From: Solirubrobacterales bacterium
GTDB lineage: Bacteria; Actinomycetota; Thermoleophilia; Solirubrobacterales; Solirubrobacteraceae
Length of the DNA stretch: 64,000 nucleotides
Reading direction: 5' to 3'
Assembly: GCA_038238015.1 (NCBI GenBank)
Contig: JBBRYA010000003.1
Coordinates: 14,462 to 78,461, forward strand
Both the position numbers and the translations under genes were made by a program. The notes below the pieces were generated by a model. The model worked only from the letters and a program-made list of their open reading frames with translations. It searched no databases and was not told the DNA's origin. This document shows, in pieces, positions 1,376 through 16,004 of this stretch. Position 1 is the first letter of the stretch; each line of letters starts with the position of its first letter.

Positions 1376-2875
1376 GTGGCCGAACCGCCGCCGCTCACCC
1401 TCGGGACCGCCGGCCACATCGACCACGGCAAGACCGCGCTCGTCCGCGCGCTCACCGGCGTGGACACCGATCGCCTGCCCGAGGAGCGCGAGCGCGGGAT
1501 CTCGATCGAGCTCGGCTACGCGGCGCTGGCGCTGCCCTCGGGCCGCCGGCTGTCGCTGATCGACGTTCCCGGCCACGAGCGCTTCGTGCGCACGATGGTC
1601 GCGGGCGCCACCGGCGTCGACCTGTTCCTGATGGTGATCGCCGCCGACGACGGCGTGATGCCCCAGACGCTCGAGCACGCCGCCGTCCTGGCCGCGCTCG
1701 GCGTCGACATCGGAGTCGTCGCGATCACCAAGGCCGATCTCGCCGACCCCGCGCCCGCTGCCGAGCAGGCGCGCGAGCTGCTGCCCGCCGCGGAGGTGGT
1801 CGCGGTGAGCGCCCGCACCGGCGAGGGCATCGACGCGCTGCGGGCCGCGCTGGAGCGCGCCGCGGACCGTGCGCCCGAGCGCGCCGCGGGCGCCGGCGCT
1901 CCGCTGCGCCTGCACGTCGACCGCGCGTTCTCGATCCGCGGCGCCGGCACCGTGGTGACCGGCACGCTGTGGTCGGGCACGGCCGAGGCCGGCGCCCAGG
2001 TCACCGTCCTGCCGGAGGGGCGGCGCGCGCGCGTGCGCGCGGTCCAGGTCCACGACGATCCCGTCGCGAGCGCCGCCGCCGGCCAGCGCGTCGCGCTCAA
2101 CCTCGCCGGCCTGGCGGCGGACGAGGTCCGCCGCGGCGACGTCGTCGTCTCCGGTGAGGACGCCGGCGCGGCGAGCTTCCGCGTCGACGCTGCGATGACC
2201 TGGGTGCAGCGCCCGGAGCCGGGCGCGCGCGTCGCGGTCCACCACGGCACGCGCGAGGTCCCGGCGCGGCTCGTCGAGCTCGGCGGGCGCTTCGCCCAGC
2301 TGCGCCTCGAGCAGCCGCTCGTTCCCGCGGGCGGCGACCGCCTGGTCATCCGCTCGCTCGCCCCGCCGGGCACGCTCGGCGGGGGCGTCGTGCTCGATCC
2401 GGCGCCTTCCCGCCACGGTCCGTCGCGCGACCTGCTCGCGCGTCTGGCCCGGCTCGAAAGGGGAGAGAGCGAACCAGAGCCCGCTGCGGCCCCACAGGCA
2501 GACCCCGCCCCCGCCGCGCCGGCGCCGCTCGCCCCTTCGGCGCTGGAGCTGGAAGAGCGCCTGCGCGCCGCCGGCCACGAGCCCCCGCCCGACGCCGAGC
2601 TCGACGCGGGCGACCTCGCGGCCCTGCGCAAGCACGGCCGGATCGTCCGCCTCGGAGCCTCCGCGCACCTGCACGCCGACGCCCTCGCCGGCGTCCAGGC
2701 GCGGGTCATCGCGCTCGTGGAGCGCGACGGAGAGGTCACGATCGCCTCGCTGCGCGACGACCTGCAGACCTCCCGCCGCTACGCCCAGGCCCTGCTCGAG
2801 CGCCTCGACGCGGAGCGCGTCACGCTGCGGGTCGGGGAGGCCCGGCGCCTGCGCTCCCGCCCAAACCGCCGCTAA
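1376..2875 (+). CDS. selB: selenocysteine-specific translation elongation factor SelB
   Basis: GTPase motifs [16 protein letters not shown] and ITKAD are present, followed by EF-Tu-like domains and a long C-terminal extension typical of SelB. Confidence 0.9.
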
Positions 2876-2887
2876 GCTTCACAACTC

Positions 2888-5296
2888 ATGCCCACCTCAT
2901 TGGTAACGGGTGGAGCGGGATTCCTCGGGTCGCATCTCTGCGACGAGTTGCTGCGGCGCGGCCACCGCGTCGTCTGCGTCGACAACTTCGAGACCGGCTC
3001 CCTCGCCAACATCGAGCACATCCGCGCGCCGGAGTTCGTCCACCTCCACAAGGACATCATCCACCCGTTCTTCGTCGATGAGCCGGTGAACTTCGTCTAC
3101 CACTTCGCCTCTCCCGCGTCGCCGATCGACTACCTGCGTCTGCCGCTGCACACGCTCAAGGTCGGCTCCTACGGCACCCACAACGCGCTCGGGCTGGCAA
3201 AGCAGCACCGCGCCCGCTTCCTCACCGCCTCGACCTCGGAGGTCTACGGCGACCCGCAGGTGCACCCGCAGCCCGAGTCCTACTGGGGCCACGTGAACCC
3301 GATCGGCCCGCGCGGCGTCTACGACGAGGCCAAGCGCTACGCCGAGGCCCTGGTCATGGCGTATCACCGCCAGCAGGGGCTGGACACGGGGATCGTGCGG
3401 ATCTTCAACTCGATCCTCGCCGACGAGCAGGTGCTCTACGACGACGGTCGCGAGCTGCGTCGCGAGAAGGTCTCAGAGCTTGCCGGGCGCCTGGCCGCCC
3501 GGGCAGTGGCCGCCAGCTACGTGCCCAGCAACGCTGCAGGGACACAGTTGATGGACGCGGCTGTCGAAGCGTCCGAATATCCGCTCGAGGGGGTCACCGT
3601 TCCCGCCTTCGGCGAGGGCGGTCACATGGTGGCGGCGCCCGCCTCAGCGCTGATCGCGCACCCCACCGAGGAGCGCTGCTTCGAGGTGAGCACGCGCTAC
3701 GGCCGGTCGATCCGCGTGACCGGTCACCACTCGATCTTCGTCGAGGGCGCCGACGGCGAGCCGGTCGCCAAGCCGGTTGAGGACCTCGAGGTCGGCGATC
3801 ACGTCGCGATCCCGCGGCGGATCGAGGTCCCTGAGCGCGACCGCACGGTAGTGAGCATGATCGAGGTCTGGCGCTGGGCGGAGGAGGACCCGTGGGACCT
3901 CTGCGCCGAAGCCCCGGGACTGGGGGAGCTGGCGTGGCAGCGGCGCTACGACCTGTTCGGGCTGCTGGCCTCGCAGCGCCGCAACAACGGTCCGAACTGG
4001 CGCAACGGGGCGTGGACGAAGATCATCCGCATGCGTCAGACCGGGCGCGTGCCCCTGCCGGCGCTCTGGCGCATCGGCGAACCGCTCCCCGACGACGCCT
4101 GGGTGCGCAGGCGCGGCACCGGACGCAGCGTGCCGATGCCGGCGCGCATCCACCTGAGCGACAAGCTGCTCTGGCTGCTCGGCCTCTGGGTCGCCGAGGG
4201 CTCGTGGCACGAGAGCTCGCACGATTCGTACATCACGCTGAGCGCCGAGGAGCCGCTGCTGTGGCGCGCGGCCGACGTCATTCGCGAGGAACTGGGCCTC
4301 CACTGCGTGTTCGCTCCGGCGAGCGGGGCACGCTCGGCGTCGCTCTTCGTGCACTCGAAGCTGCTGCTGAAGCTGATGGCCTTCCTCGGCTTCGAAGAGG
4401 GCGGCAAGCGGATTCCCGGCTGGATCCTCGGGCTGCCGCTCAGCCGCCTGAAGTGGTTCATCGAGGGCTACCGCGAGGGCGACGGCGTGCATTCCGGCGC
4501 GTGGTTCAGGGAGGGCAAGAAGCACCACTTCGCGACGGTCCACGAGGAGCTCAAAGACGACCTCGTCGTCGCGCTGGCCCGCTTCGGGCTCGTGGCCTCC
4601 ATAGGCCGCTACAGCTCCAAGATCCGCCGCAAGACCGGGGATCGGGGCTATCCCTTCTGGAGGGTGTCGGTCTCGAGCCTCTCCCCGTGGAGCCCGCTGG
4701 AGTGGGACGCGGGCGTCGAGCAGCGGCTCAATGCGCGAACGACCGGCGATCTCGCCTGGGCAATGATCACCGGCATCCAGGAGATTCCCGCAACGAACCT
4801 CGTCTACGACTTCTCCGTCCCAGGGTACGAGAACTTTGTGGCGGGAGCTTGTGTCAATTGTCATAATACCTACGGCCCGAGGATGCGCCCGCATGACGGC
4901 CGCGCGATCCCGACCTTCATGCGCCAGGCGCTCCAGGACCGGCCGATCACGATCTTCGGCGACGGCTCCCAGACGCGCTCCTTCTGCTTCGTCAGCGATC
5001 TGATCGACGGGATCATCGGGCTCGCCGAGTCCGGCCACCATCATCCGGTGAACATCGGCAACCCCAACGAGTTCACGCTGCTCGAACTGGCCGACGCCGT
5101 CATAGAGGTCACCGGCTCGCGCTCGGAGGTCGTGCACGAGGCGCTGCCGACCGATGATCCCCAGGTACGCCAGCCCGACATCTCGCTCGCCCGCGAGATC
5201 CTGGGCTGGGAGCCGAAGGTCGAGCTTCGCGAAGGCCTGCAGACGACGCTCGAGCTCTCCGGAGTCGAGGCGCTCACTGGTGCCGGCCTGCGCTGA
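2888..5296 (+). CDS. UDP-glucuronate decarboxylase (UDP-xylose synthase-type extended SDR) interrupted by an intein
   Basis: Host motifs are [10 protein letters not shown] (Rossmann), STSEVYG and YDEAKR (catalytic YxxxK). The conserved ...VRIFN / TYGPRM... motif is split by a 486-aa insert. The joined exteins total 316 aa, the normal size for this family. Confidence 0.9.
3410..4867 (+). mobile_element. intein (486 aa) with LAGLIDADG homing-endonuclease domain, inside the UXS gene
   Basis: It starts Ser-Ile-Leu-Ala-Asp directly after extein ...IFN. Block B is [11 protein letters not shown]. The two LAGLIDADG motifs are [10 protein letters not shown] and [10 protein letters not shown]. The C-terminal [15 protein letters not shown]...VNCHN is followed by +1 Thr of TYGPRM. 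Confidence 0.85.
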
Positions 5297-5309
5297 GGGC
5301 AGGAAACCC

Positions 5310-5331
5310 CGCGACCATTGAGAAGGTCGCG
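5310..5331 (+). terminator. weak stem-loop downstream of the UXS gene
   Basis: CGCGACC-attgagaa-GGTCGCG forms a 7-bp stem. There is no T-tract, so function is uncertain. Confidence 0.25.
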
Positions 5332-5343
5332 CGTTAGGGCTGA

Positions 5344-6903
5344 GTGAGAGCAACTGTGGCCAAAACGCCGATCCAGACCGAACATCCCACACCGCCGGCC
5401 CGGCCCCCTCTCGGGCAGGTTCCCCTGCCCACGCCGCTGCTGGGCACCAACGGGGCGGTCGACGTCCGGCGCAAGCGCCCGCCCGGCCTGTCGTTCCTCC
5501 TGCGCGCCGAGACGCTGCGCCAGGTGCTGCGGGTGCTCAGCCTGCTGGCGCTGGACTTCGCGGGCCTATTCGCCGCACTCTGGACCGCGCTCATGCTCAA
5601 GGCGGTCCTGCTCGCCGACACCTGGGCGTGGAGCACGTCCTTCCAGGAGGCCAAGAACACCGTGGCCTTCGCCTACCTGGTGACCGCGCTGCTGTTCGCC
5701 CGCTCGAGCCTCTACGCCGAGCGCGCCCAGCGGCCCGGCCTGCCGAAGATCGTCAGCTCGCTCTTCCAGGTCACGGTCGTCGCGCTGATCTTCGCCGTGG
5801 TCAACGGCGAGCACTACTCCAGCTACTACATCTTCTACGGGACGCTGGTGTTCGCGGTCGTCTACGTCGGCTCGATCCGCTGGGCCTACGAGAAGATCAC
5901 CGGAATGCTGCTGCGCGCCGCCGGCTACCAGCGCCGCGCGGTGCTGGTCGGCTCCGGCCGGCACATCGAGGACGTCGCGCACGCGCTCACCGACGAGGTG
6001 CACGCGCCGGTTGAGATGGTCGGCTTCATCTCGCTGACCCCGCGCCCGGACAACGGCCTGCGCTCGCTCGGGCTGATCGGCGACCTCCCGCAGGTGCTCG
6101 ATCGCCACCGCGTGCAGGAGGTCATCATCGCCGACCCGGACTTCCCGCAGGAGCAGGCGGTCGAGCTCGTGGACCAGTGCCATCAGCGCGGCGTATCGGT
6201 GCGCATCGCGCCCTCGACGATGGAGATCCTCGTGCACCGCGCGGAGTTCGTGCCCGGCACCTCGGTCCCGCTCTTCGAGCTTCGCCCGCCGGTCTTCGAC
6301 GGCTTCGACTACGTGATCAAGCGCTCGTTCGACTTCGTCGGGTCGGTGCTGCTGATCCTGCTGCTGAGCCCCCTGCTGCTCGTCATCGCGGCCTCGGTCT
6401 TCCTCTCCTCCCGCGGGCCGGTGCTCTACCGGTCGATGCGCCCCGGCGTCGGCGGCGAGCTTTTCGCCTGCTTCAAGTTCCGCACGATGCGCTCTGACGC
6501 CGACCAGCTGCAGGCCGACATCGAGTCGCTCAACGAGGCCTCGGGGCCGCTGTTCAAGATCCGCCACGACCCGCGCATGACCCCCGTCGGGCGCTTCCTG
6601 CGGCGCTACTCGCTCGACGAGCTGCCCCAGCTGCTCAACGTCGTCTTCGGCCAGATGTCGCTGGTCGGCCCGCGGCCGCTGCCCCAGCGCGACTATGACC
6701 AGCTCGAGGACTGGCACAAGAAGCGCTATCTCGTGCTGCCGGGGATCACCGGCCTGTGGCAGGTCTCGGGGCGCTCGGAGCTTGACTTCGACGACCTCGT
6801 GCGCCTGGACTTCCTCTACCTCGAGCGCTGGTCGGTCAGCCTCGACCTGACCATCCTGGTCAAGACCGTTCCGGCCGTGCTGTCGCGGCGCGGCGCGTTC
6901 TAG
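5344..6903 (+). CDS. large (WbaP/EpsB-type) polyprenyl-phosphate sugar phosphotransferase, priming enzyme
   Basis: N-terminal TM helices and a central Rossmann-like region are followed by the C-terminal bacterial sugar transferase signature FKFRTM...PLFKIRHDPRMTPVGRFLRRYSLDELPQLLNV...SLVGPRP...PGITGLWQVSGR. The start codon is uncertain. Confidence 0.9.
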   Translation: MRATVAKTPIQTEHPTPPARPPLGQVPLPTPLLGTNGAVDVRRKRPPGLSFLLRAETLRQVLRVLSLLALDFAGLFAALWTALMLKAVLLADTWAWSTSFQEAKNTVAFAYLVTALLFARSSLYAERAQRPGLPKIVSSLFQVTVVALIFAVVNGEHYSSYYIFYGTLVFAVVYVGSIRWAYEKITGMLLRAAGYQRRAVLVGSGRHIEDVAHALTDEVHAPVEMVGFISLTPRPDNGLRSLGLIGDLPQVLDRHRVQEVIIADPDFPQEQAVELVDQCHQRGVSVRIAPSTMEILVHRAEFVPGTSVPLFELRPPVFDGFDYVIKRSFDFVGSVLLILLLSPLLLVIAASVFLSSRGPVLYRSMRPGVGGELFACFKFRTMRSDADQLQADIESLNEASGPLFKIRHDPRMTPVGRFLRRYSLDELPQLLNVVFGQMSLVGPRPLPQRDYDQLEDWHKKRYLVLPGITGLWQVSGRSELDFDDLVRLDFLYLERWSVSLDLTILVKTVPAVLSRRGAF

Positions 6904-6927
6904 CCCTGAGGCGTTAGCCTTCGGCGC

Positions 6928-7098
6928 ATGCTCATCCTCGCGCTCAGCGACGCGGCGAAGACCACGATCTCCGCGGTGATCATCTGGTTCGTCGCCTTCC
7001 CGGCCCTGATCGGGATCCTGATCGCCGTCTCGGCGTTCCGCGCCCACGGCGAGAAGATGGAGGACGAGGAGTACTTCCGGCAGCACCGCCGCCGCTAG
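6928..7098 (+). CDS. possible 56-aa small membrane protein
   Basis: ATG...TAG ORF read directly from the DNA (MLILALSDAAKTTISAVIIWFVAFPALIGILIAVSAF...). It has one hydrophobic helix, is below the ORF-track size cutoff, and has no homology evidence. Confidence 0.3.
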   Translation: MLILALSDAAKTTISAVIIWFVAFPALIGILIAVSAFRAHGEKMEDEEYFRQHRRR

Positions 7099-7105
7099 GC
7101 CTGAG

Positions 7106-8065
7106 TCACCGGGCCTGCAGCGCGCGCTCGTAGACCGCCCACGTGGCGGTCGCGGCCTCGCCCCACGTCCACGGCGGGGGGTCGGGCGCGGGCCGCGTAG
7201 CCCGCGCGGCCGCGTGCACGAGCGCGGCCATGTCACCCGACGCCACGTAGGTCGCGCGGTCGCCGACCACCTCGCGAAGGGCCGGAAGGTCACAGGCGAC
7301 CACCGGAGTCCCGCACGCGAGCGCCTCGACGGCCGGCAGGCCGAAGCCCTCGTCGGCGGACGGGACGACCAGCGCGCGAGCGCCGCTGTAGATGGCGGCG
7401 AGGTCGTCGTCGCCGACCATCCCGGTGAGCGTCACGTCGTGCAGCTCGCGCGCCCACTGCCCCGCGTCCCCGACCAGGACGAGCGGCAGCTCGCGCGGCA
7501 CCTCGGCCAGCGGGGCGACCCGCTTGGTCGGCTCGGGATGGCGCAGCGCGCCGACCCACAGGAGGTAGTCCTCGGGCAGCCCGTAGCGCTTGCGGACCGC
7601 GGCGGTCTCCGTCTCCGGGCGCGGCGTGAAGGCGGGAGCGGGCGCCTCGGCGATGACGTGCACGTGCTCGGGGTCGCAGCCGAGCAGCTCGATCGCGTCG
7701 GCCCCCACCACGTCGGTCGGCACGATCAGCTCCGCTGCGCGCTCGACCGCCAGCCAGCGCATCCGCGCCCGCAGGCCCGCGCGCAGGACCTGGCCGGGGC
7801 GCTTGAGCGCCACGAGGTCGTGGAGCGTGATGACCATCGGCAGGCGCGGGCGCAGCAGCGCGCCGTTGAGCCACGGCGAGTGAAACAGGCTGTCGCCGCG
7901 CTGGGGCTCGCGGCCCTCGAGCACTTCGGCGCCCCGGCGCGCGGCCTCCTCGCGCAGGGCGTCGAGCAGGCAGCGCGCGTAGCGGCCGATCCCGTCGGGC
8001 TCGGCCGCCGGGCGAGAGTCGTAGCGCACGCGCAGCCCCCCGTCGCCTGGCCCGCGGTTCGGCAC
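7106..8065 (-). CDS. glycosyltransferase family 4 (GT-B)
   Basis: N-terminal GIGRY motif and C-terminal VPSADEGFGLPAVEALACGTPVV (the E-x7-E region of GT4). Confidence 0.85.
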   Translation of the reverse strand: MPNRGPGDGGLRVRYDSRPAAEPDGIGRYARCLLDALREEAARRGAEVLEGREPQRGDSLFHSPWLNGALLRPRLPMVITLHDLVALKRPGQVLRAGLRARMRWLAVERAAELIVPTDVVGADAIELLGCDPEHVHVIAEAPAPAFTPRPETETAAVRKRYGLPEDYLLWVGALRHPEPTKRVAPLAEVPRELPLVLVGDAGQWARELHDVTLTGMVGDDDLAAIYSGARALVVPSADEGFGLPAVEALACGTPVVACDLPALREVVGDRATYVASGDMAALVHAAARATRPAPDPPPWTWGEAATATWAVYERALQAR

Positions 8066-8109: not shown

Positions 8110-8727
8110 GTGAAGGACTACTACGAGGACGTCTGGGCGCAGCTCCCCGAGGATCCCGAGCCGTGGGCGTTCGCGCGCCGCCGCGCGCTCCTGCTCGGCG
8201 AGGCGCGGCCGGGCGAGCGGGTGCTCGACCTCGGCTGCGGGGCCGGGCGCTTCCTCGCAGCACTGCGCGACGCCGGCGCGGACCCGGTGGGCGTCGAGCT
8301 CGCCGAGGGTGCGCTCGAGCGGGCCCGGCGCAACGTCCCGGGCGCCGACCTGCGCCCGCTCGGCCCGGGCGGCGAGCTGCCGCTCGAGGACGCCTCCGTC
8401 GATCTCGTGTGGTCCTCGGAGGTGCTCGAGCACGTGCCCGACACCGCGCGCACGCTGTCTGAGGCCCGCCGCGTGCTGCGCACCGGAGGGCGCCTGCTGG
8501 TGACCACGCCGGCGCACGGGCCGCTGCGGCGGACGCTGATCGCGCTCGCGCGCTTCGACTCCCACTTCGACCCGCTCGGCCAGCACGTCCGCTTCTACTC
8601 GCGCGCCTCGCTGGAGCGTGTGCTGGGTGCGTTCGCCTTCGAGCCGGTGCAGGTCAGCGCCGAGGGCGGGCCGCCGGGCCTGCGGGCGATGCTGGTGGCG
8701 CGAGCGGTGAAGGCGAAGCTGGTCTAG
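8110..8727 (+). CDS. class I SAM-dependent methyltransferase
   Basis: Motif I VLDLGCGAGRF and post-I/II motifs DLVWSSEVLEHVPD and LRTGGRLLVT. GTG start. Confidence 0.85.
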   Translation: MKDYYEDVWAQLPEDPEPWAFARRRALLLGEARPGERVLDLGCGAGRFLAALRDAGADPVGVELAEGALERARRNVPGADLRPLGPGGELPLEDASVDLVWSSEVLEHVPDTARTLSEARRVLRTGGRLLVTTPAHGPLRRTLIALARFDSHFDPLGQHVRFYSRASLERVLGAFAFEPVQVSAEGGPPGLRAMLVARAVKAKLV

Positions 8728-10820
8728 CGCTGTTGCAGTGCCCGCGAGGCCTCGAGGAAGTCAGAGCTCGACTGCGCCGGCTGCGGGTCCAGGAAGTAGG
8801 TCGCGCGGAACGCCGCGACCGCGCCCTCGGGATTGTTGAGCGAGCTGAGCCGGTAGCGCCCGAGCCGTCGCCACGCCTCGGCGTTGGCGGGCTGGAGCTT
8901 GACGGCCTGCTCGAGCGCGTGCAGCGCGCCCTGCTTGTCGCCCTTCGCGTCATCGATGAAAGCCAGCTGCCACAGCGGGTCGACCGACAGCGGGTTGCGC
9001 TTCGCGGCCGTTCGCGAGATCGAGGCGGCCGCGTCGTAGGCGCCGATCTGCGCGCGGTCGATCGCCGCGTCCTCGGCGTGGGCCGAGCGCACGGGTTGCA
9101 GGGCCATCCACGAGCCGACGAGCGCGACGGCGAGGACGGCCAGCGCGCCCGCGGCTCCGGTACGCGGCGGGCGCCACGCGCGCAGGCGCTCGCGCCAGGG
9201 ACCGCGCGCAGGCGGCGCCACGACGACCGCGGCCTCGGTCCGCGCGCGCAGCGGCCCGCGGCCGGCGACCCAGGCCGCGCACAGCAGCGCGACCGCGGCG
9301 TTGCCCGGCACGAACCAGGTCCAGTCGATCAGCGAGTGGACCGTGAACACGAGCACGACCGTGGCCATCGTGAGCATGCCGACCCGCTCGGCGTCGAAGG
9401 CCAGCCCGCGGTCGCGGCGGCGCAGCCCGAGCGTGCGGGCGGCCGCGACCAGCCACGCCAGCGCCGCCAGCAGCGACAGGCCGAGGCCCACGAGCCCGAG
9501 GTCCGACAGCGTCTGCACGACGTACCCGTGGGCGTGGCGCACCGACTGGGTGCTGTAGCGGTAGCGCGTCCGCGCGGTGCCGAACGCGCCCGCCCCGGCG
9601 CCGATCCACTTCGAGTGGCGATAGACGGCGAGCGCCTCGCGCCAGTAGGCGGCGCGGACCGAGGAGGTGGCCGTGAGGCGGTCGGGCGTGTTGGTCGGCG
9701 TCGCCGCCTTGGGATCGGTGAGCCGGTGCCAGCTCGTTGAGACCTGGCCGCTCAGCCCGCCCGGAGCAGTCGCTATCGCCACTACGACGACCACGGGGAT
9801 GATCGCGAGTGCGCCGAGGATGCCGCGCCCGGCGAGGCGCCGCAGGCGCGCGCTCGGCGCACGCCTCGCGGCGAGGAAGTTGACCGCCAGCCCGGCCGTG
9901 ACCAGCAGCGCGGCCATCAGCAGCAACAGCGCTCCCAGCTCGTGACCGGCGTCGCCGCGCGCGCTCAGCGGCACACGGTCCAGGGTCAGCGCGTCGCGCC
10001 GGAACGCCCATGCGACCACGGGCGCCGCGCCCACCAGCGAGCCGACCAGCGCCGTTGCCCCGCGTAGCCGCAGCGGCACGACCGCGAACCAGAAGGCGAG
10101 GCCCACCAGCAGCGCCAGCAGCGCGCCGCGCGAGTAGGAGAGCATCATGCAGACCGCCAGCAGCCCGAGGCCCGGCCAGGCGAGCGCGTTGACCGCCGCG
10201 TCGCCGGAGCGGCGGGCGGCGAGCCACAGCAGTGGCGGCACCCCGAGCGCCGCCATCAGGCCGACGGCGTTCCAGTAGCCGAAGGGCTCGCGCAGGCGCG
10301 CGTAGGTCTCGCCGGGGGCGAGCGCGGCGGGGAAGACCTTGGTCGCCAGCGCCCAGGCACAGACCAGCAAGCAGGCGAGGCCCACGCCGTGCAGCACCGC
10401 CGCCCAGCGCTCGGGAGCCAGGCGGACGAGCGCGAGCGCCCCCGCGAACGCGGCGAGGTAGGCGAGCGTCCGGTTGGCCTCCAGCCACGAGTCCGACGGG
10501 GCGAGCGACCAGACGATCGAGAGCGCGGTGAACACCGCGAGCCCCGCGAGCGCCAGCAGCGTCATCGCGCCGGGGATCTCGCCCCGCACGCGGTCGGTGA
10601 GCAGTACCGCCGCGGTCAGGCCCGCGCCGAGCAGCAGCAGGCCGATCTCCGTCCAGGTCGTGCGCTCGAGCCGCAGCCCGCCGTCGGCCACGAAGGCCAC
10701 CGCCGCGAGCGTGAGCCCGACGGCAATCGTCAGGCCCGCGTCAGCGCGCACCCGGTCGAAGGGCAGCGGGCGCGCCTGGGCGCGCCGGGCGGCGCTAAGC
10801 GGCGCGGCGAGCGAGGACAC
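8724..10820 (-). CDS. O-antigen ligase/polymerase-like (Wzy_C) polytopic membrane protein with C-terminal TPR region (copy 1)
   Basis: At least 10 predicted TM helices with a large loop, then a C-terminal soluble part with TPR-like repeats (...GDKQGALHALEQAVKLQPANAEAWRRLGRYRL...). Confidence 0.8.
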   Translation of the reverse strand: MSSLAAPLSAARRAQARPLPFDRVRADAGLTIAVGLTLAAVAFVADGGLRLERTTWTEIGLLLLGAGLTAAVLLTDRVRGEIPGAMTLLALAGLAVFTALSIVWSLAPSDSWLEANRTLAYLAAFAGALALVRLAPERWAAVLHGVGLACLLVCAWALATKVFPAALAPGETYARLREPFGYWNAVGLMAALGVPPLLWLAARRSGDAAVNALAWPGLGLLAVCMMLSYSRGALLALLVGLAFWFAVVPLRLRGATALVGSLVGAAPVVAWAFRRDALTLDRVPLSARGDAGHELGALLLLMAALLVTAGLAVNFLAARRAPSARLRRLAGRGILGALAIIPVVVVVAIATAPGGLSGQVSTSWHRLTDPKAATPTNTPDRLTATSSVRAAYWREALAVYRHSKWIGAGAGAFGTARTRYRYSTQSVRHAHGYVVQTLSDLGLVGLGLSLLAALAWLVAAARTLGLRRRDRGLAFDAERVGMLTMATVVLVFTVHSLIDWTWFVPGNAAVALLCAAWVAGRGPLRARTEAAVVVAPPARGPWRERLRAWRPPRTGAAGALAVLAVALVGSWMALQPVRSAHAEDAAIDRAQIGAYDAAASISRTAAKRNPLSVDPLWQLAFIDDAKGDKQGALHALEQAVKLQPANAEAWRRLGRYRLSSLNNPEGAVAAFRATYFLDPQPAQSSSDFLEASRALQQR

Positions 10821-11382: not shown

Positions 11383-12470
11383 GCTAGCAACCGGTCGCCG
11401 GGCTGCTGGGAGGATCCGACCGCCGCAAGCGCGCGCGAGAAGCCGGCCGCCCAGGCCGCGTGGGAGAAGGGCCGGACGGCTTCGCGAGCGGCGGCGCCGA
11501 GGCGCTCGCGGAGCTCGCGGTCGCCCTCCAGGCGCACCAGCGCGGCGGCCAGCGCCCCGGCGTCGCCCGCGGGCACGACGAGGCCGGTCTCCTCATGACG
11601 GACGAGCCCGCCGGCGACGGCGCCGACGGCATCGGTGGCGATCACGGGCACTCCCTGGTCGAAGGCTTCGTTGACGACGAGCCCCCACGGCTCCAGGAAG
11701 TCGCGCGTGGGGACCGACGGTAGGACGACAACGTCGCTGCCCGCGTAGAAGTTGCGCACTTCTCCGGCGCTGCGGGGCCCTTCGGCCAGCACCGCGCTGG
11801 TGGCGACGGCCCGGGCTCGGATCGGACCGTCGCCGACCAGTGCCAGCGCGGCGGTTGGTGCTGAGAGGCCCGAAAGACTCCAGGCTTCAAGTAGCACCTT
11901 GATTCCCTTCTCCCCGGTTAATCGGCCGACAAACATCGCCTGAAACGGCGCGCGGCGCAGCGGCGTCGCCGGAGCCGACCAGAACGCGTCGTCGACCGAC
12001 TGCGGGGCCTCGACCACCGTCTGGTGCGCGCCCTTGGCCCGCACGTAGCCGGACACGTGGCTCCCGTAGGTGACGATCGCGTCCGCGCGGCGGTAGAGGT
12101 GGCGCAGCGGCAGGTAGGAGAGCGCGTGCGCCGGCGTGCGCGGATGCGCCCAGATCGTCGCCCACAGCACGAACGGCACGCCGGCGCGGCGGGCGCCCAG
12201 GTAGGCGGCGGGCAGCGCGACGCGGCCCGAGAGCCCGGCGACGACCGCACGGAAGCGCCCCGACGCGGCCAGGCGGGCGATCGCCCGCTGGTCGGGCTGC
12301 AGCACCGGGAAGCCGGCCGGCTCGCCGCCACTCCCACCACCGTGGCGCAGCTCGCCGCCCACGAGCGCGAAGACCACGTTCTCGTGCTCGTGCAGCGCCC
12401 GGAACGCGCCGGCGCGCGCCGGCGGGGCGTGGTTGGTCACGAACAGGACCGGCCGCGGGTCCGCGCTCAC
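11379..12470 (-). CDS. glycosyltransferase family 4
   Basis: GT-B architecture with C-terminal LPSVPTRDFLEPWGLVVNEAFDQGVPVIATD. 4-nt overlaps with both neighbours. Confidence 0.85.
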   Translation of the reverse strand: MSADPRPVLFVTNHAPPARAGAFRALHEHENVVFALVGGELRHGGGSGGEPAGFPVLQPDQRAIARLAASGRFRAVVAGLSGRVALPAAYLGARRAGVPFVLWATIWAHPRTPAHALSYLPLRHLYRRADAIVTYGSHVSGYVRAKGAHQTVVEAPQSVDDAFWSAPATPLRRAPFQAMFVGRLTGEKGIKVLLEAWSLSGLSAPTAALALVGDGPIRARAVATSAVLAEGPRSAGEVRNFYAGSDVVVLPSVPTRDFLEPWGLVVNEAFDQGVPVIATDAVGAVAGGLVRHEETGLVVPAGDAGALAAALVRLEGDRELRERLGAAAREAVRPFSHAAWAAGFSRALAAVGSSQQPGDRLLA

Positions 12471-13636
12471 CGCAGCGCCTCCTCGTACGCGGCGACGGTC
12501 GCGGCGCCGCAGGCCTCCCAGGTGAAGGACGCCTGCACGGTGGCCCGAGCGGCGGCGCCGAGCTCGCGCCGCCAGGCGGGCTCCTCGACCAGGCCGCGCA
12601 GCTCGGCCGCGAGCGCCTCGGGGTCGCCGGGCGCCACGAGGCGCATCCCGCCGCCGGTCGCCGCGATCTCCTCCGGCCCCGGCTCCCCGCGGCTGCCGAC
12701 CGCCGGGAGGCCGGCGGCCATCGCCTCGACGTAGGCCACCCCGAAGGCCTCGTCGATGCTCGGCAGCACGAACACCTCGCCCTCACGCGTCGCCGCCAGC
12801 GCCTCGGCGTGGGGGAGCTGCCCGAGGAAGCGCACCTGGTGCTCGAGCCCCAGCTCACGCGCCTGGCGCTCGAGCGCCGGGCGCTCCGGGCCGTCGCCGA
12901 CCACGGTCCAGACCAGCCCGGGGTGCGAGTCGCGCAGCAGCCACAGCGCGCGCAGCACGTCCGCATGGCGCTTGCGCGCGACCAGGTGCGCGAGCGTGGT
13001 CAGCGCTGGTCCGGCGCCATCGTGCGCGGTGCGCGCGGGGACGTCGGTCCCGAGGTGCACGACCCGCGTCGCCCGGGCGCCCAGCTGCACGCAGCGGCGC
13101 TCGATCGCGCGCGAGTTGGCGAGCACCAGCCGCGCCGCGCCGAGCCCGGCGGCGACGGCGCGCCGCCCGGCCGGCGAGGCGGACGCGAGCGAGAGCACGT
13201 CGCCGCCGTGCACCGAGACCACCAGCGGGCGCCCGATCCGCGCCCGCCGCACCGCGTCCCCCGCCGGCGCGGCGTAGTGGGCATGGACGAGGTCGAACGG
13301 GAACTCACGCGCCAGCCGGCGCAGCGCGAGCGCCAGCGACGGCGCCGCCCACGCGCCCCAGGAGGCGTAGCTGCGCGGCCGCGGTGGGGCGAGGAACGGG
13401 ACGTAGCGGACGCGGATCCCGTCGAGCTCGGCGCTCAGCGGCTGGCGCAGCGGAGCCAGCAGCGCCCGCGGCGAGCGGCTGCGCAGCGCCGCCCGCGGCG
13501 GGATCGGCCGGTGCAGCACGAGCACCTCCACCTCGGCGCCCGCGTCACGCGCGGCGAGCGCCTGGCGGTGCGCCCACACACCGAAGACCGGGTCCTCGGC
13601 CCGCGGGTAGTACTCCGCGACGACGGCGACGCGCAT
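12467..13636 (-). CDS. glycosyltransferase family 4
   Basis: MRVAVVAEYYP... N-terminus and C-terminal [24 protein letters not shown]. Confidence 0.85.
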   Translation of the reverse strand: MRVAVVAEYYPRAEDPVFGVWAHRQALAARDAGAEVEVLVLHRPIPPRAALRSRSPRALLAPLRQPLSAELDGIRVRYVPFLAPPRPRSYASWGAWAAPSLALALRRLAREFPFDLVHAHYAAPAGDAVRRARIGRPLVVSVHGGDVLSLASASPAGRRAVAAGLGAARLVLANSRAIERRCVQLGARATRVVHLGTDVPARTAHDGAGPALTTLAHLVARKRHADVLRALWLLRDSHPGLVWTVVGDGPERPALERQARELGLEHQVRFLGQLPHAEALAATREGEVFVLPSIDEAFGVAYVEAMAAGLPAVGSRGEPGPEEIAATGGGMRLVAPGDPEALAAELRGLVEEPAWRRELGAAARATVQASFTWEACGAATVAAYEEALR

Positions 13637-14354: not shown

Positions 14355-16004
14355 CTACTCCCGATGCTCGGCGAGCACCTGCCCCGCCTGCTCGCGCGTG
14401 ACGTAGGGCTGGCCGGCCAGGAACGCCTCCGCCTCGGCCATCGCCTCCGCCCGCGGGTAGGTCGCCGCCACCGGACGCAGGTGGCGCACCGGCGTCGCGT
14501 CGACGATCCCGACCGGCCAGCCATTGCGCTCGGCGACCGCGCCCCAGTAGGCGTCGAGCCCCCAGCCCATCTGCAGGTCCGGGAACGGCAGCAGCACATG
14601 GAAGGCGTCGGCGCGGATCGCCGTCACCGGGCCGATCTCCACGAAGCGCGTGCGCCGCGCGAGCAGGTCCGGCCGGCGCCGCGTGACCTCCCAGGCGGCG
14701 TGCGACGCGAAGGCGTGCGCGGGCTGGGCGAGGCGGAAGTGGTAGCGCTCGGCGAGCGCGATGAAGGCGTCGAGGAAGCCGCGCGGGAGCACGACGTCGT
14801 CGTCGACCACGAGCAGCCAGTCAAAGCCCCGCGGGACGTCATGGCCGAGCGCGCGGTTGAGGTTCGCCCACTTGCCCGCCCCCGGGCGCGGCGGCAGGGT
14901 GCTGAGGACGACCTCGTGGTGGGAGGCCTCGAGCTCCGCGGCCGTCTTGGCGGCGCGCTTAGCGTTCTCCGGCCGGACGACCGAGGCGACCAGTACCCGG
15001 CGCTTCGGCGTCTCGCTCGCCCAGCGCGCCAGCCCGTGGCGGAGCCGGAACGCGGTCAGGTTCGCGCGCGCATCGCGCACCGTGCCGGCCAGCAGGTCGC
15101 GGCGCCCGAGCGTGCCCGAGCGCCCGCTCAGGTAGTCGGGGTCCGTCGCGCTCGGCGGCACCGGCTTGGGGCGCAGCGCCTCGCGCAGGCGCCCGGCGGT
15201 CAGTGCGGTGAGCACGATCCCGTTCCCGCATCTGTAGCGGCCCGTGTGCCAGACGCAGCCGGCCAGCGTCCGCAGCTCCCCAGCGACCGTCGGCGTGATG
15301 CCCTTGCGCGCGTCGTAGCGGCGCGAGTGGCGCCCGCGGCGGTAAGCGGCGCGCGAGAGCCCGCGCAGCTTCGCGTCCGCGCCCGCGCGCCGGTGCTCGA
15401 CCCCGGCCTCGGCGACGTAGCGAATGCGCCCGCCGGCCGCGCGCAGGCGGCGCTGCCAGTCCTCCTCGTCGCCATAGAGGTCGAGCGTGGGGTCAAAGCG
15501 CCCGGCGAGCTCGAGCGCCGAGCGCCGCAGGGCCATGTTCGCGCCCCACACGAAGTCCGCGTCGACGTCGCGGGCTCCGAGGTCGAGCGTGGTCACCGGC
15601 GGAGGCTCGCGCCCGCACGGATGCAGGTTGGTCCCCTCCAGCCGCGCGCGGATCGGGCCGCCGAGCACGTCGTGCTCCGGCGCCGCGCCGGCGCCCAGCA
15701 GCAGCGCGCCCAGCCAGCCCGGCCACGCCTCGACGTCGTCGTCGAGGAAGCACAGGAGCGCGCCGCTCGCGGCGTCGATCGCGGCGTTGCGCGCGGCGTT
15801 GAGCCCGCGCGTCTCGCCCAGCGCGAGGTAGCGCGCCCCGTGGGCGGAGGCCAGCGCCTCGGTCTCCGCGTCGGCGGGGTCGTCCTCGATCACGATCAGC
15901 TCGGCGCCGTGCTCCGAGGCCTGGGCGGCGACTGAGGCGAGCGCGACCGCGAGGTAGTCGCGGCGGCGGTGGGTAGGGATGAGGATGGAGGCGGCGGGCG
16001 GCAT
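14355..16004 (-). CDS. two-domain glycosyltransferase family 2 (GT-A)
   Basis: The N-terminal domain has SILIPTHRR...LIVIEDDP...FLDDDV (DxD). A second GT-A-like domain has LLVVDDDVVLPRGF. The ATG overlaps the vapC stop by 1 nt. Confidence 0.85.
   Translation of the reverse strand: MPPAASILIPTHRRRDYLAVALASVAAQASEHGAELIVIEDDPADAETEALASAHGARYLALGETRGLNAARNAAIDAASGALLCFLDDDVEAWPGWLGALLLGAGAAPEHDVLGGPIRARLEGTNLHPCGREPPPVTTLDLGARDVDADFVWGANMALRRSALELAGRFDPTLDLYGDEEDWQRRLRAAGGRIRYVAEAGVEHRRAGADAKLRGLSRAAYRRGRHSRRYDARKGITPTVAGELRTLAGCVWHTGRYRCGNGIVLTALTAGRLREALRPKPVPPSATDPDYLSGRSGTLGRRDLLAGTVRDARANLTAFRLRHGLARWASETPKRRVLVASVVRPENAKRAAKTAAELEASHHEVVLSTLPPRPGAGKWANLNRALGHDVPRGFDWLLVVDDDVVLPRGFLDAFIALAERYHFRLAQPAHAFASHAAWEVTRRRPDLLARRTRFVEIGPVTAIRADAFHVLLPFPDLQMGWGLDAYWGAVAERNGWPVGIVDATPVRHLRPVAATYPRAEAMAEAEAFLAGQPYVTREQAGQVLAEHRE

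Follow-up and report, generated by a model that had tools for sequence, protein, structure and literature searches.

An endonuclease-bearing class-1 intein in the UDP-xylose synthase-type gene of a Solirubrobacterales bacterium, with relatives well spread in soil Actinomycetota

Investigating a stretch of 64,000 nucleotides from a Solirubrobacterales bacterium (assembly GCA_038238015.1, contig JBBRYA010000003.1, positions 14,462 to 78,461; the whole 64-kb stretch is called the window below), we followed up the proposal, originally made from the letters alone, that a large LAGLIDADG intein splits a gene for a UDP-glucuronate decarboxylase, or UDP-xylose synthase (UXS), an enzyme of the extended short-chain dehydrogenase/reductase (SDR) type. 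The features of the locus are collected in Table 1, and residue numbers refer throughout to the precursor of 802 amino acids (aa). Its Epimerase/GDP_Man_Dehyd domain is recognised by Pfam in two pieces (residues 5-176 and approximately 655-789), and the insert, which comprises 1458 nt, that is 486 codons, splits the invariant motif VRIFN↓TYGPRM (the arrow marks a splice junction or insertion point). In translation, the two junctions read GIVRIFN(174)↓S(175)ILADEQV and ACVNCH(659)N(660)↓T(661)YGPRM. The original prediction had placed an insert of 486 codons at 3410-4867, splitting this very motif, which is exact in the sequence; the Ser nucleophile, the TGHH of block B, the two LAGLIDADG motifs and the terminal His-Asn followed by a +1 Thr, which it had also claimed, are all found in the translation.

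Without the insert, the extein has 316 aa, which is the most frequent length (74 cases) among the 120 intein-less homologues that are closest, and the enzyme of normal size that had been expected after removal of the insert is thus encoded. Over its entire length, this spliced extein can be aligned with human UXS1 (4gll/2b69; E = 8e-104), the alignment running across ARIFNTFGPRM, as compared with E = 1e-39 for the best match to GalE. Both the NAD site GGAGFLGSH (residues 8-16) and the catalytic Y145-DEA-K149 of the N-extein align with the human enzyme. None of the NCBIfam equivalog cut-offs is reached by the extein, the top model being dTDP_gluc_dehyt with 119 bits against a cut-off of 365, and homologues are named UDP-glucuronate decarboxylase by the Joint Genome Institute (JGI). 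Judged from its sequence, the host is a UDP-glucuronate decarboxylase/UDP-xylose synthase of the extended SDR type, as proposed, and its most likely role is to provide UDP-xylose for an envelope polysaccharide or an exopolysaccharide. The motif broken by the intein belongs to the invariant core and is common to human UXS1; a precursor that fails to splice should therefore be inactive, and active UXS should need splicing. Neither a second UXS nor a second intein was found in the window by tblastn.

Table 1. Features of the UXS-intein gene and of its neighbourhood (positions count from the first letter of the window)
Feature	Position	Strand	Remarks
Precursor open reading frame, UXS-type extended SDR with intein	2888..5296	+	802 aa and stop; from the list of open reading frames
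N-extein, aa 1-174	2888..3409	+	ends in the invariant R-I-F-N
Intein, aa 175-660	3410..4867	+	486 aa, ~54 kDa; HINT domain with nested LAGLIDADG endonuclease
Block A	3410..3448	+	starts with Ser175, the residue-1 nucleophile of the intein
Block B	3701..3739	+	TxxH, here T278-G-H-H281
LAGLIDADG motif 1 (block C)	4169..4204	+	putative catalytic residue E437
LAGLIDADG motif 2 (block E)	4448..4486	+	putative catalytic residue D532
Block F	4799..4846	+	contains Asp641
Block G, ACVNCHN	4847..4867	+	penultimate His659, terminal Asn660
C-extein, aa 661-802 and stop	4868..5296	+	Thr661 as +1 nucleophile; starts with TYGPRM
selB, selenocysteine-specific elongation factor	1376..2875	+	GTP_EFTU, SelB-wing_3, Beta-barrel_SelB (Pfam)
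Priming sugar transferase	5344..6903	+	CoA_binding_3 and Bac_transf (Pfam); outside the intein element
GT4 glycosyltransferase	7106..8065	-	Pfam
Wzy_C/TPR protein	8724..10820	-	Pfam
GT4 glycosyltransferase	12467..13636	-	Pfam
GT2 glycosyltransferase	14355..16004	-	Pfam

Searched alone, the insert matches the Pfam profile Intein_splicing (PF14890) with 65.1 bits (cut-off 35.8; E = 8e-18), and LAGLIDADG_3 (PF14528) is matched over residues 523-584 with 28.6 bits (cut-off 22.5). The profile search for Hint and LAGLIDADG domains, on whose outcome the prediction had been staked beforehand, has therefore returned both profiles above their curated cut-offs. The NCBIfam models intein_Nterm and intein_Cterm match in part, and models of intein-containing archaeal proteins also match the insert. 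Among the structures of the PDB, the closest by sequence is PI-PkoII (E = 1.8e-14), with the TFIIB, VMA, CDC21 and DnaB inteins found as well. An AlphaFold2 model of the intein, for which 113 aligned sequences served as input, reached a predicted local distance difference test score (pLDDT) of 91.5 and a predicted template-modelling score (pTM) of 0.90, its sole disordered loop comprising intein residues 42-50. When this model was compared with the PDB by Foldseek, PI-PkoII (2cw7) was the top match (2.8e-26; template-modelling (TM) score 0.69), further top matches being TliVMA (1.1e-21), PhoVMA (3.3e-18), PI-PfuI (2.5e-14) and PI-SceI, all of them intein homing endonucleases (best entries 2cw7, 7qsu, 7qss, 7qst, 1dq3 and PI-SceI). 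The HINT part matches mini-inteins (TMt up to about 0.6), and the endonuclease core matches I-DmoI (TMt 0.65-0.67) and I-Tsp061I as well as the endonuclease domains of PI-PkoII and PI-PfuI. The class-3 WCT signature is absent from the intein, because position 4 of block F is Asp. The insert is almost certainly a bona fide class-1 intein with a LAGLIDADG domain, profiles and structure model agreeing with the LAGLIDADG intein that had been claimed for this UXS-type SDR.

Like PI-PkoII, TliVMA, PhoVMA and PI-PfuI (2cw7; 7qsu, 7qss, 7qst; 1dq3), the window intein possesses a HINT domain broken by a two-motif LAGLIDADG endonuclease, and it has extra DNA-binding elements in common with the PI-PkoII group. 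With PI-PkoII itself, which is the Pol-2 intein of Thermococcus kodakarensis, it shares the 'ENF' of block F and the second motif FxEGYxxGDG. Identity to the PI-PkoII, VMA and PI-PfuI inteins is, however, 15-19%; their hosts are archaeal and are DNA polymerases or ATPases, whereas the window host is bacterial and a sugar-nucleotide enzyme, and the junction residues of the window intein are Ser1 and Thr+1.

In an alignment of 112 full-length intein-bearing homologues, on which all conservation counts given here are based, Ser1, T278, H281, D641, N660 and Thr+1 (T661) are each present in 112 of 112 sequences, and so are the extein flanks R171, I172, F173, N174 and G663. Homologues carrying the same insert without splice-junction residues, which the original prediction had considered as an argument for a mere structural domain, were thus not encountered. 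The acidic residues of the endonuclease are kept in 109 (E437) and in all 112 sequences (D532), with G438 likewise invariant (112/112). The penultimate residue 659 varies (His 50, Lys 24, Ala 15, Arg 7, Ser 6, Asn 5), and Cys655 and Cys658 near the C-terminal junction are poorly kept (2/112 and 23/112). One protein of the family, P0095, contains a scrambled block F/G (PGPQTFCTSHLILVNN).

Block G of the window copy (ACVNCHN) is itself atypical when compared with the family consensus TGVMAHN, a similar ACIICHN being found in P0009. The final eight codons of the intein (4844-4867; 653-660 in the reading frame) are GGA GCT TGT GTC AAT TGT CAT AAT, so that their G+C content at third codon positions (GC3) is 1/8, as compared with about 0.9 for the gene. 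A family-wide patch of rare codons at the C-terminus of the intein was considered and rejected, the run of low GC3 over codons 653-660 being confined to the window copy; it could represent a short conversion patch originating from another intein lineage.

Selection was estimated by the Nei-Gojobori method from 63 intact coding sequences (window and the set L001-L080). The ratio of nonsynonymous to synonymous substitutions (dN/dS) is 0.30 for the endonuclease, 0.21-0.32 for the HINT parts, 0.39 for the linker and 0.29 for the extein, values which should be taken as approximate because dS is high and for many pairs close to saturation. As the endonuclease and the extein have nearly the same ratio, purifying selection on the endonuclease is as strong as on the enzyme. 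Median dS is about 1.0 in the intein and about 0.6 (0.61) in the flanking extein of the same genome pairs, which would fit inteins that are older than the host alleles or have been exchanged between them, or else a stronger codon bias in the extein. The family-mean GC3 is lower in the intein (0.84) than in the extein (0.93).

These data also bear on the idea that the insert is a structural domain that does not splice, or that the gene is a disrupted pseudogene. Two of 65 full-length loci, L014 (6001-7894) and L063 (6001-7891), indeed carry frameshifts or stops in the intein-bearing gene, and they may be decaying copies or else assembly errors; sequencing error is possible since both originate from metagenome-assembled genomes (MAGs). 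The reading frame is, however, intact in the other 63, the extein evolves at a dN/dS of 0.29, all splice residues are invariant in the 112 homologues, the insert breaks a core motif that is invariant and common to human UXS1, and intein-less orthologues, described below, possess a seamless junction. We consider this explanation very improbable.

The steps by which we propose the precursor to mature follow standard intein chemistry. A precursor of 802 aa (about 89 kDa) would be translated first, in which Ser175 would undergo an N-O acyl shift aided by Thr278 and His281 of block B. Attack of Thr661 on the Ser175 ester would accomplish the transesterification, cyclisation of Asn660, aided by His659 and by Asp641 of block F, would release the intein of about 54 kDa, and an O-N shift would leave a normal UXS of 316 aa (about 35 kDa) with VRIFNTYGPRM restored. 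The intein is real and well formed and probably functional, and its competence for splicing appears highly probable. Once released, the intein or the endonuclease domain within it would most likely cut intein-less UXS alleles at the conserved DNA encoding RIFNTYGP, and recombinational repair would copy the intein into the cut allele (homing). Such homing would account for an element that is widespread and yet distributed patchily among close relatives.

Widespread it is. Searches with the intein gave at least 1018 protein clusters, and an exhaustive search gave 1078 relatives among representatives at 50% identity. All of the best 120 matches are UXS proteins with the intein or fragments of such proteins (97 of them at 800-830 aa), they are 63-82% identical across the intein, and many intein-bearing proteins carry the JGI label 'nucleoside-diphosphate-sugar epimerase/intein/homing endonuclease'. 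When a single genome per species was scanned, at least 123 genomes were seen to encode the intein, no match exceeding 69% identity; 80 of the intein-bearing loci, all from MAGs, were fetched for the locus analyses. These belong mostly to Solirubrobacterales, Gaiellales, Thermoleophilaceae or Conexibacter, with some Acidimicrobiia and one Rubrobacteraceae, and in 80 of 80 the intein is flush with the same junction. Mini-intein derivatives were not seen among the matches of the intein search. Our literature searches found no published description of inteins in UXS. The intein in UXS is well spread in soil Actinomycetota, is already contained in database annotation and is a fairly ordinary find.

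Regarding its absence, the best 120 matches to the spliced extein are all intein-less, mostly 313-316 aa long and 84-96% identical. Among the matches listed, the nearest extein relative of the window (96%) is intein-less and the nearest intein is 82% identical, the closest intein-bearing proteins having exteins of 89-91% and inteins of at most 82% identity to the window. Three intein-less loci were checked in the DNA, L083 and L084, both with the allele of 96% identity, and L081, whose allele is 91% identical. Each aligns collinearly with the window to the left and right of a gap of exactly 1458 bp, and the Bac_transf priming-transferase gene known from the window follows downstream in each; in L083 (nt 421-1371) the junction is uninterrupted (...ATCTTCAAC↓ACGTATGGCCC...). 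All three are orthologous empty sites and no paralogues. An alignment of the exteins to intein-less UXS homologues and a survey for presence and absence, as asked for with the original prediction, have accordingly brought to light the uninterrupted motif.

On a simple neighbour-joining tree of 232 exteins, which are a biased sample, presence and absence of the intein interleave and its state changes at least 16 times, and this interleaving points to a mobile element. Pairwise identities of inteins and exteins correlate with r = 0.47; very close pairs co-vary, distant ones do not. The GC3 of the intein (0.89) is host-like, the exteins having 0.90-0.94, and any transfer should therefore have occurred among high-GC relatives. 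The evidence is in keeping with a cycle in which the intein is gained by homing, resides vertically and is lost again, and we hold it slightly more likely than not that the endonuclease is currently active in homing.

A different explanation for the patchiness is that the intein splices while its endonuclease is no longer active, that it persists vertically, and that it is occasionally lost precisely by recombination with intein-free alleles, since an imprecise deletion would destroy the essential motif. In line with this, the locus is syntenic in many Solirubrobacterales MAGs, the GC3 of the intein is fully host-like, close extein pairs carry close inteins, a co-conversion tract is not significant (see below), and a related copy from Trichodesmium has degenerate LAGLIDADG motifs. 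Vertical persistence with a dead endonuclease is nevertheless rather unlikely, given an endonuclease dN/dS of 0.30 that equals that of the extein, catalytic acidic residues kept in 109/112 and 112/112 sequences, the lack of mini-intein derivatives among the matches, the 16 or more changes of state on the extein tree and an intein-less extein relative of 96% identity where the nearest intein among the matches listed stands at 82%.

Taken together, we put at roughly 0.85 the probability that the UXS gene contains a class-1 intein with a two-motif LAGLIDADG homing endonuclease which splices and homes. Several points weigh against it. Splicing and DNA cleavage are both deduced from sequence and model. 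Block F has ENF, with Glu where many inteins carry His, although PI-PkoII does likewise, and the penultimate His is found in only 50 of the 112 family members, the window copy with its His659 among them. The extein tree is simple and its sampling biased, and intein-less sequences beyond L081, L083 and L084 may include paralogues. Synteny, host-like GC3 and co-divergence of close pairs fit a long vertical residence with occasional loss as well. Finally, the sign of co-conversion beside the insertion site is weak relative to L083 (proximal identity 0.858, distal 0.917, Fisher p = 0.06), and relative to L081 no such signal was found.

Related inteins are not restricted to UXS. Eight of the ten nearest diverged full-length relatives tested are extended SDRs with an intein at the equivalent position; their hosts are UXS proteins of low-GC or cyanobacterium-like organisms, the dTDP-glucose-dehydratase-like P0137 (a partial sequence with 279 bits on dTDP_gluc_dehyt over two thirds of the model) and several unassigned SDRs. 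These inteins are found at R-x-(F/S/H/M)-N↓(S/C/T)-x-G, the same structural position as in the window. The SDR-hosted inteins of P0128, P0137, P0142, P0194 and P0218 are 28-42% identical to the window intein, and that of the SDR P0467 was reached only through the cyanobacterial intein (29%). Some of these relatives use Cys1/Cys+1, and their host subfamilies differ from UXS.

A cyanobacterium-like intein used as query revealed proteins of Trichodesmium erythraeum, Okeania, Prochloron, Kamptonema and Cand. Cyanaurora. The cyanobacterial UXS inteins have the same host enzyme and likewise contain LAGLIDADG motifs, but are 29-33% identical to the window intein and form a distinct, shorter lineage (about 420-450 aa). 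The junction ARIFN↓S...(H/A)N↓TYGPRM is identical in four cyanobacterial copies (Trichodesmium, Okeania hirsuta, Cand. Cyanaurora and a cyanobacterial MAG). In the Trichodesmium copy the LAGLIDADG motifs are degenerate (FLGFYVARGS, FLKGFVAGNN), whereas the Thermoleophilia lineage keeps both acidic residues. The Trichodesmium UXS gene bears a second, upstream intein, within which its gene call begins. 'Ter Ndse' inteins of Trichodesmium are presumably listed in InBase. P0441 (the UXS of Trichodesmium erythraeum) and P0219 (an RmlB-like SDR) reveal at least two further intein sites in extended SDRs: '...RNGRAAWCGQ↓CYDEGKR', located just N-terminal of the catalytic YxxxK and ending in Gln rather than Asn, and '...NGRFVFSGN↓TDEVFGP', located within the STDEVYG motif. 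The nearest non-SDR relatives (P0164, P0150, P0158, P0183) reside in a phage portal protein (Portal_Mu/Phage_portal) and in unassigned phage-like proteins with the junction ...YNS↓ITGDQ...CCKN↓TN, which hints at an exchange between phage-borne and SDR-borne inteins.

Extending the homing interpretation to the whole family, we tentatively suggest, and would rate as falling just short of an even chance, that the UXS intein of Thermoleophilia and Acidimicrobiia is an actively homing element which, in soil actinomycetes, cycles between intein-free and intein-bearing alleles of a gene that serves metabolism and not information processing, and that its lineage has spread among paralogous sugar-nucleotide SDR families (UXS, RmlB-like and others) via the shared coding motif R-x-F-N↓T-Y-G-P.

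According to the original prediction, a cell-surface sugar-nucleotide enzyme would be an unusual intein host. In the survey by Novikova et al. (PMC4760082), 61.5% of the bacterial intein hosts belong to COG category L and 21.7% to category F, and no SDR or UXS host appears in its tables, including that of the top-15 bacterial hosts; a host of category M is therefore uncommon, and to this extent the claim stands. It was overstated, however, in view of an archaeal UDP-glucose dehydrogenase among the top 15 archaeal hosts of the same tables (PMC4760082), of the at least 1018 clusters, of the cyanobacterial UXS inteins and of the JGI annotation. The archaeal inteins in UDP-glucose/GDP-mannose dehydrogenases (COG1004; 10 inteins in the tables of PMC4760082) likewise reside in a nucleotide-sugar enzyme of category M, which even catalyses the step immediately upstream of UXS; protein fold, insertion site and domain of life are different, and the likeness is one of host pathway.

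Concerning the surroundings of the gene, the end of selB lies 12 nt ahead of the UXS start codon, and the gene is found upstream in several homologous loci of Solirubrobacterales MAGs; across the 64-kb window, no tRNA (tRNA-Sec included) and no Rfam families were detected. The priming transferase lies downstream in about half of the 80 intein-bearing loci, and in the intein-less L081, L083 and L084 as well. Around positions 2850-7000, which contain UXS and the priming transferase, the GC content is 0.64-0.72 compared with 0.75-0.80 in the flanks, GC3 staying at about 0.9.

Since a polysaccharide cluster (Bac_transf, GT4, Wzy-like and GT2 genes) begins with the UXS gene, one could imagine that splicing is conditional, the intein being retained as a post-translational switch that answers to some cue and gates the supply of UDP-xylose and thereby polysaccharide synthesis. 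Purifying selection across the whole intein would agree with such a role, and for other inteins a regulatory role of splicing has been put forward (PMC4760082). We nevertheless regard it as improbable: the junction nucleophiles are Ser and Thr and not Cys, so that the known redox or disulfide traps are inapplicable, Cys655 and Cys658 are not conserved (2/112 and 23/112), many close relatives do without the intein, and no sensing feature was found.

The intein-bearing proteins of about 800 aa are labelled 'NAD-dependent epimerase/dehydratase' or 'GDP-mannose 4,6-dehydratase' with the intein unflagged by automatic annotation, and any inference on UDP-xylose and exopolysaccharide pathways in Thermoleophilia that is based on protein size or domains should allow for the splice. 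As the intein has Ser1 and Thr+1 and originates from high-GC soil actinomycetes, it may, if active, also be of use as a Cys-free and possibly redox-insensitive splicing tool. The UXS family offers a well-populated case of an apparently functional endonuclease-bearing intein in a sugar-nucleotide enzyme of the cell envelope, and its set of sequences should be useful for models of the homing cycle and of target-site transfer between paralogues, because intein-free alleles share the downstream gene and related inteins occupy the same position in other SDRs. Its most interesting aspect is evolutionary, namely a large, endonuclease-intact intein population in a metabolic gene that is polymorphic for presence and absence. 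If active homing and the spread among SDRs hold true, it would provide a very large natural data set on the homing cycle and on target-site switching outside of replication genes.

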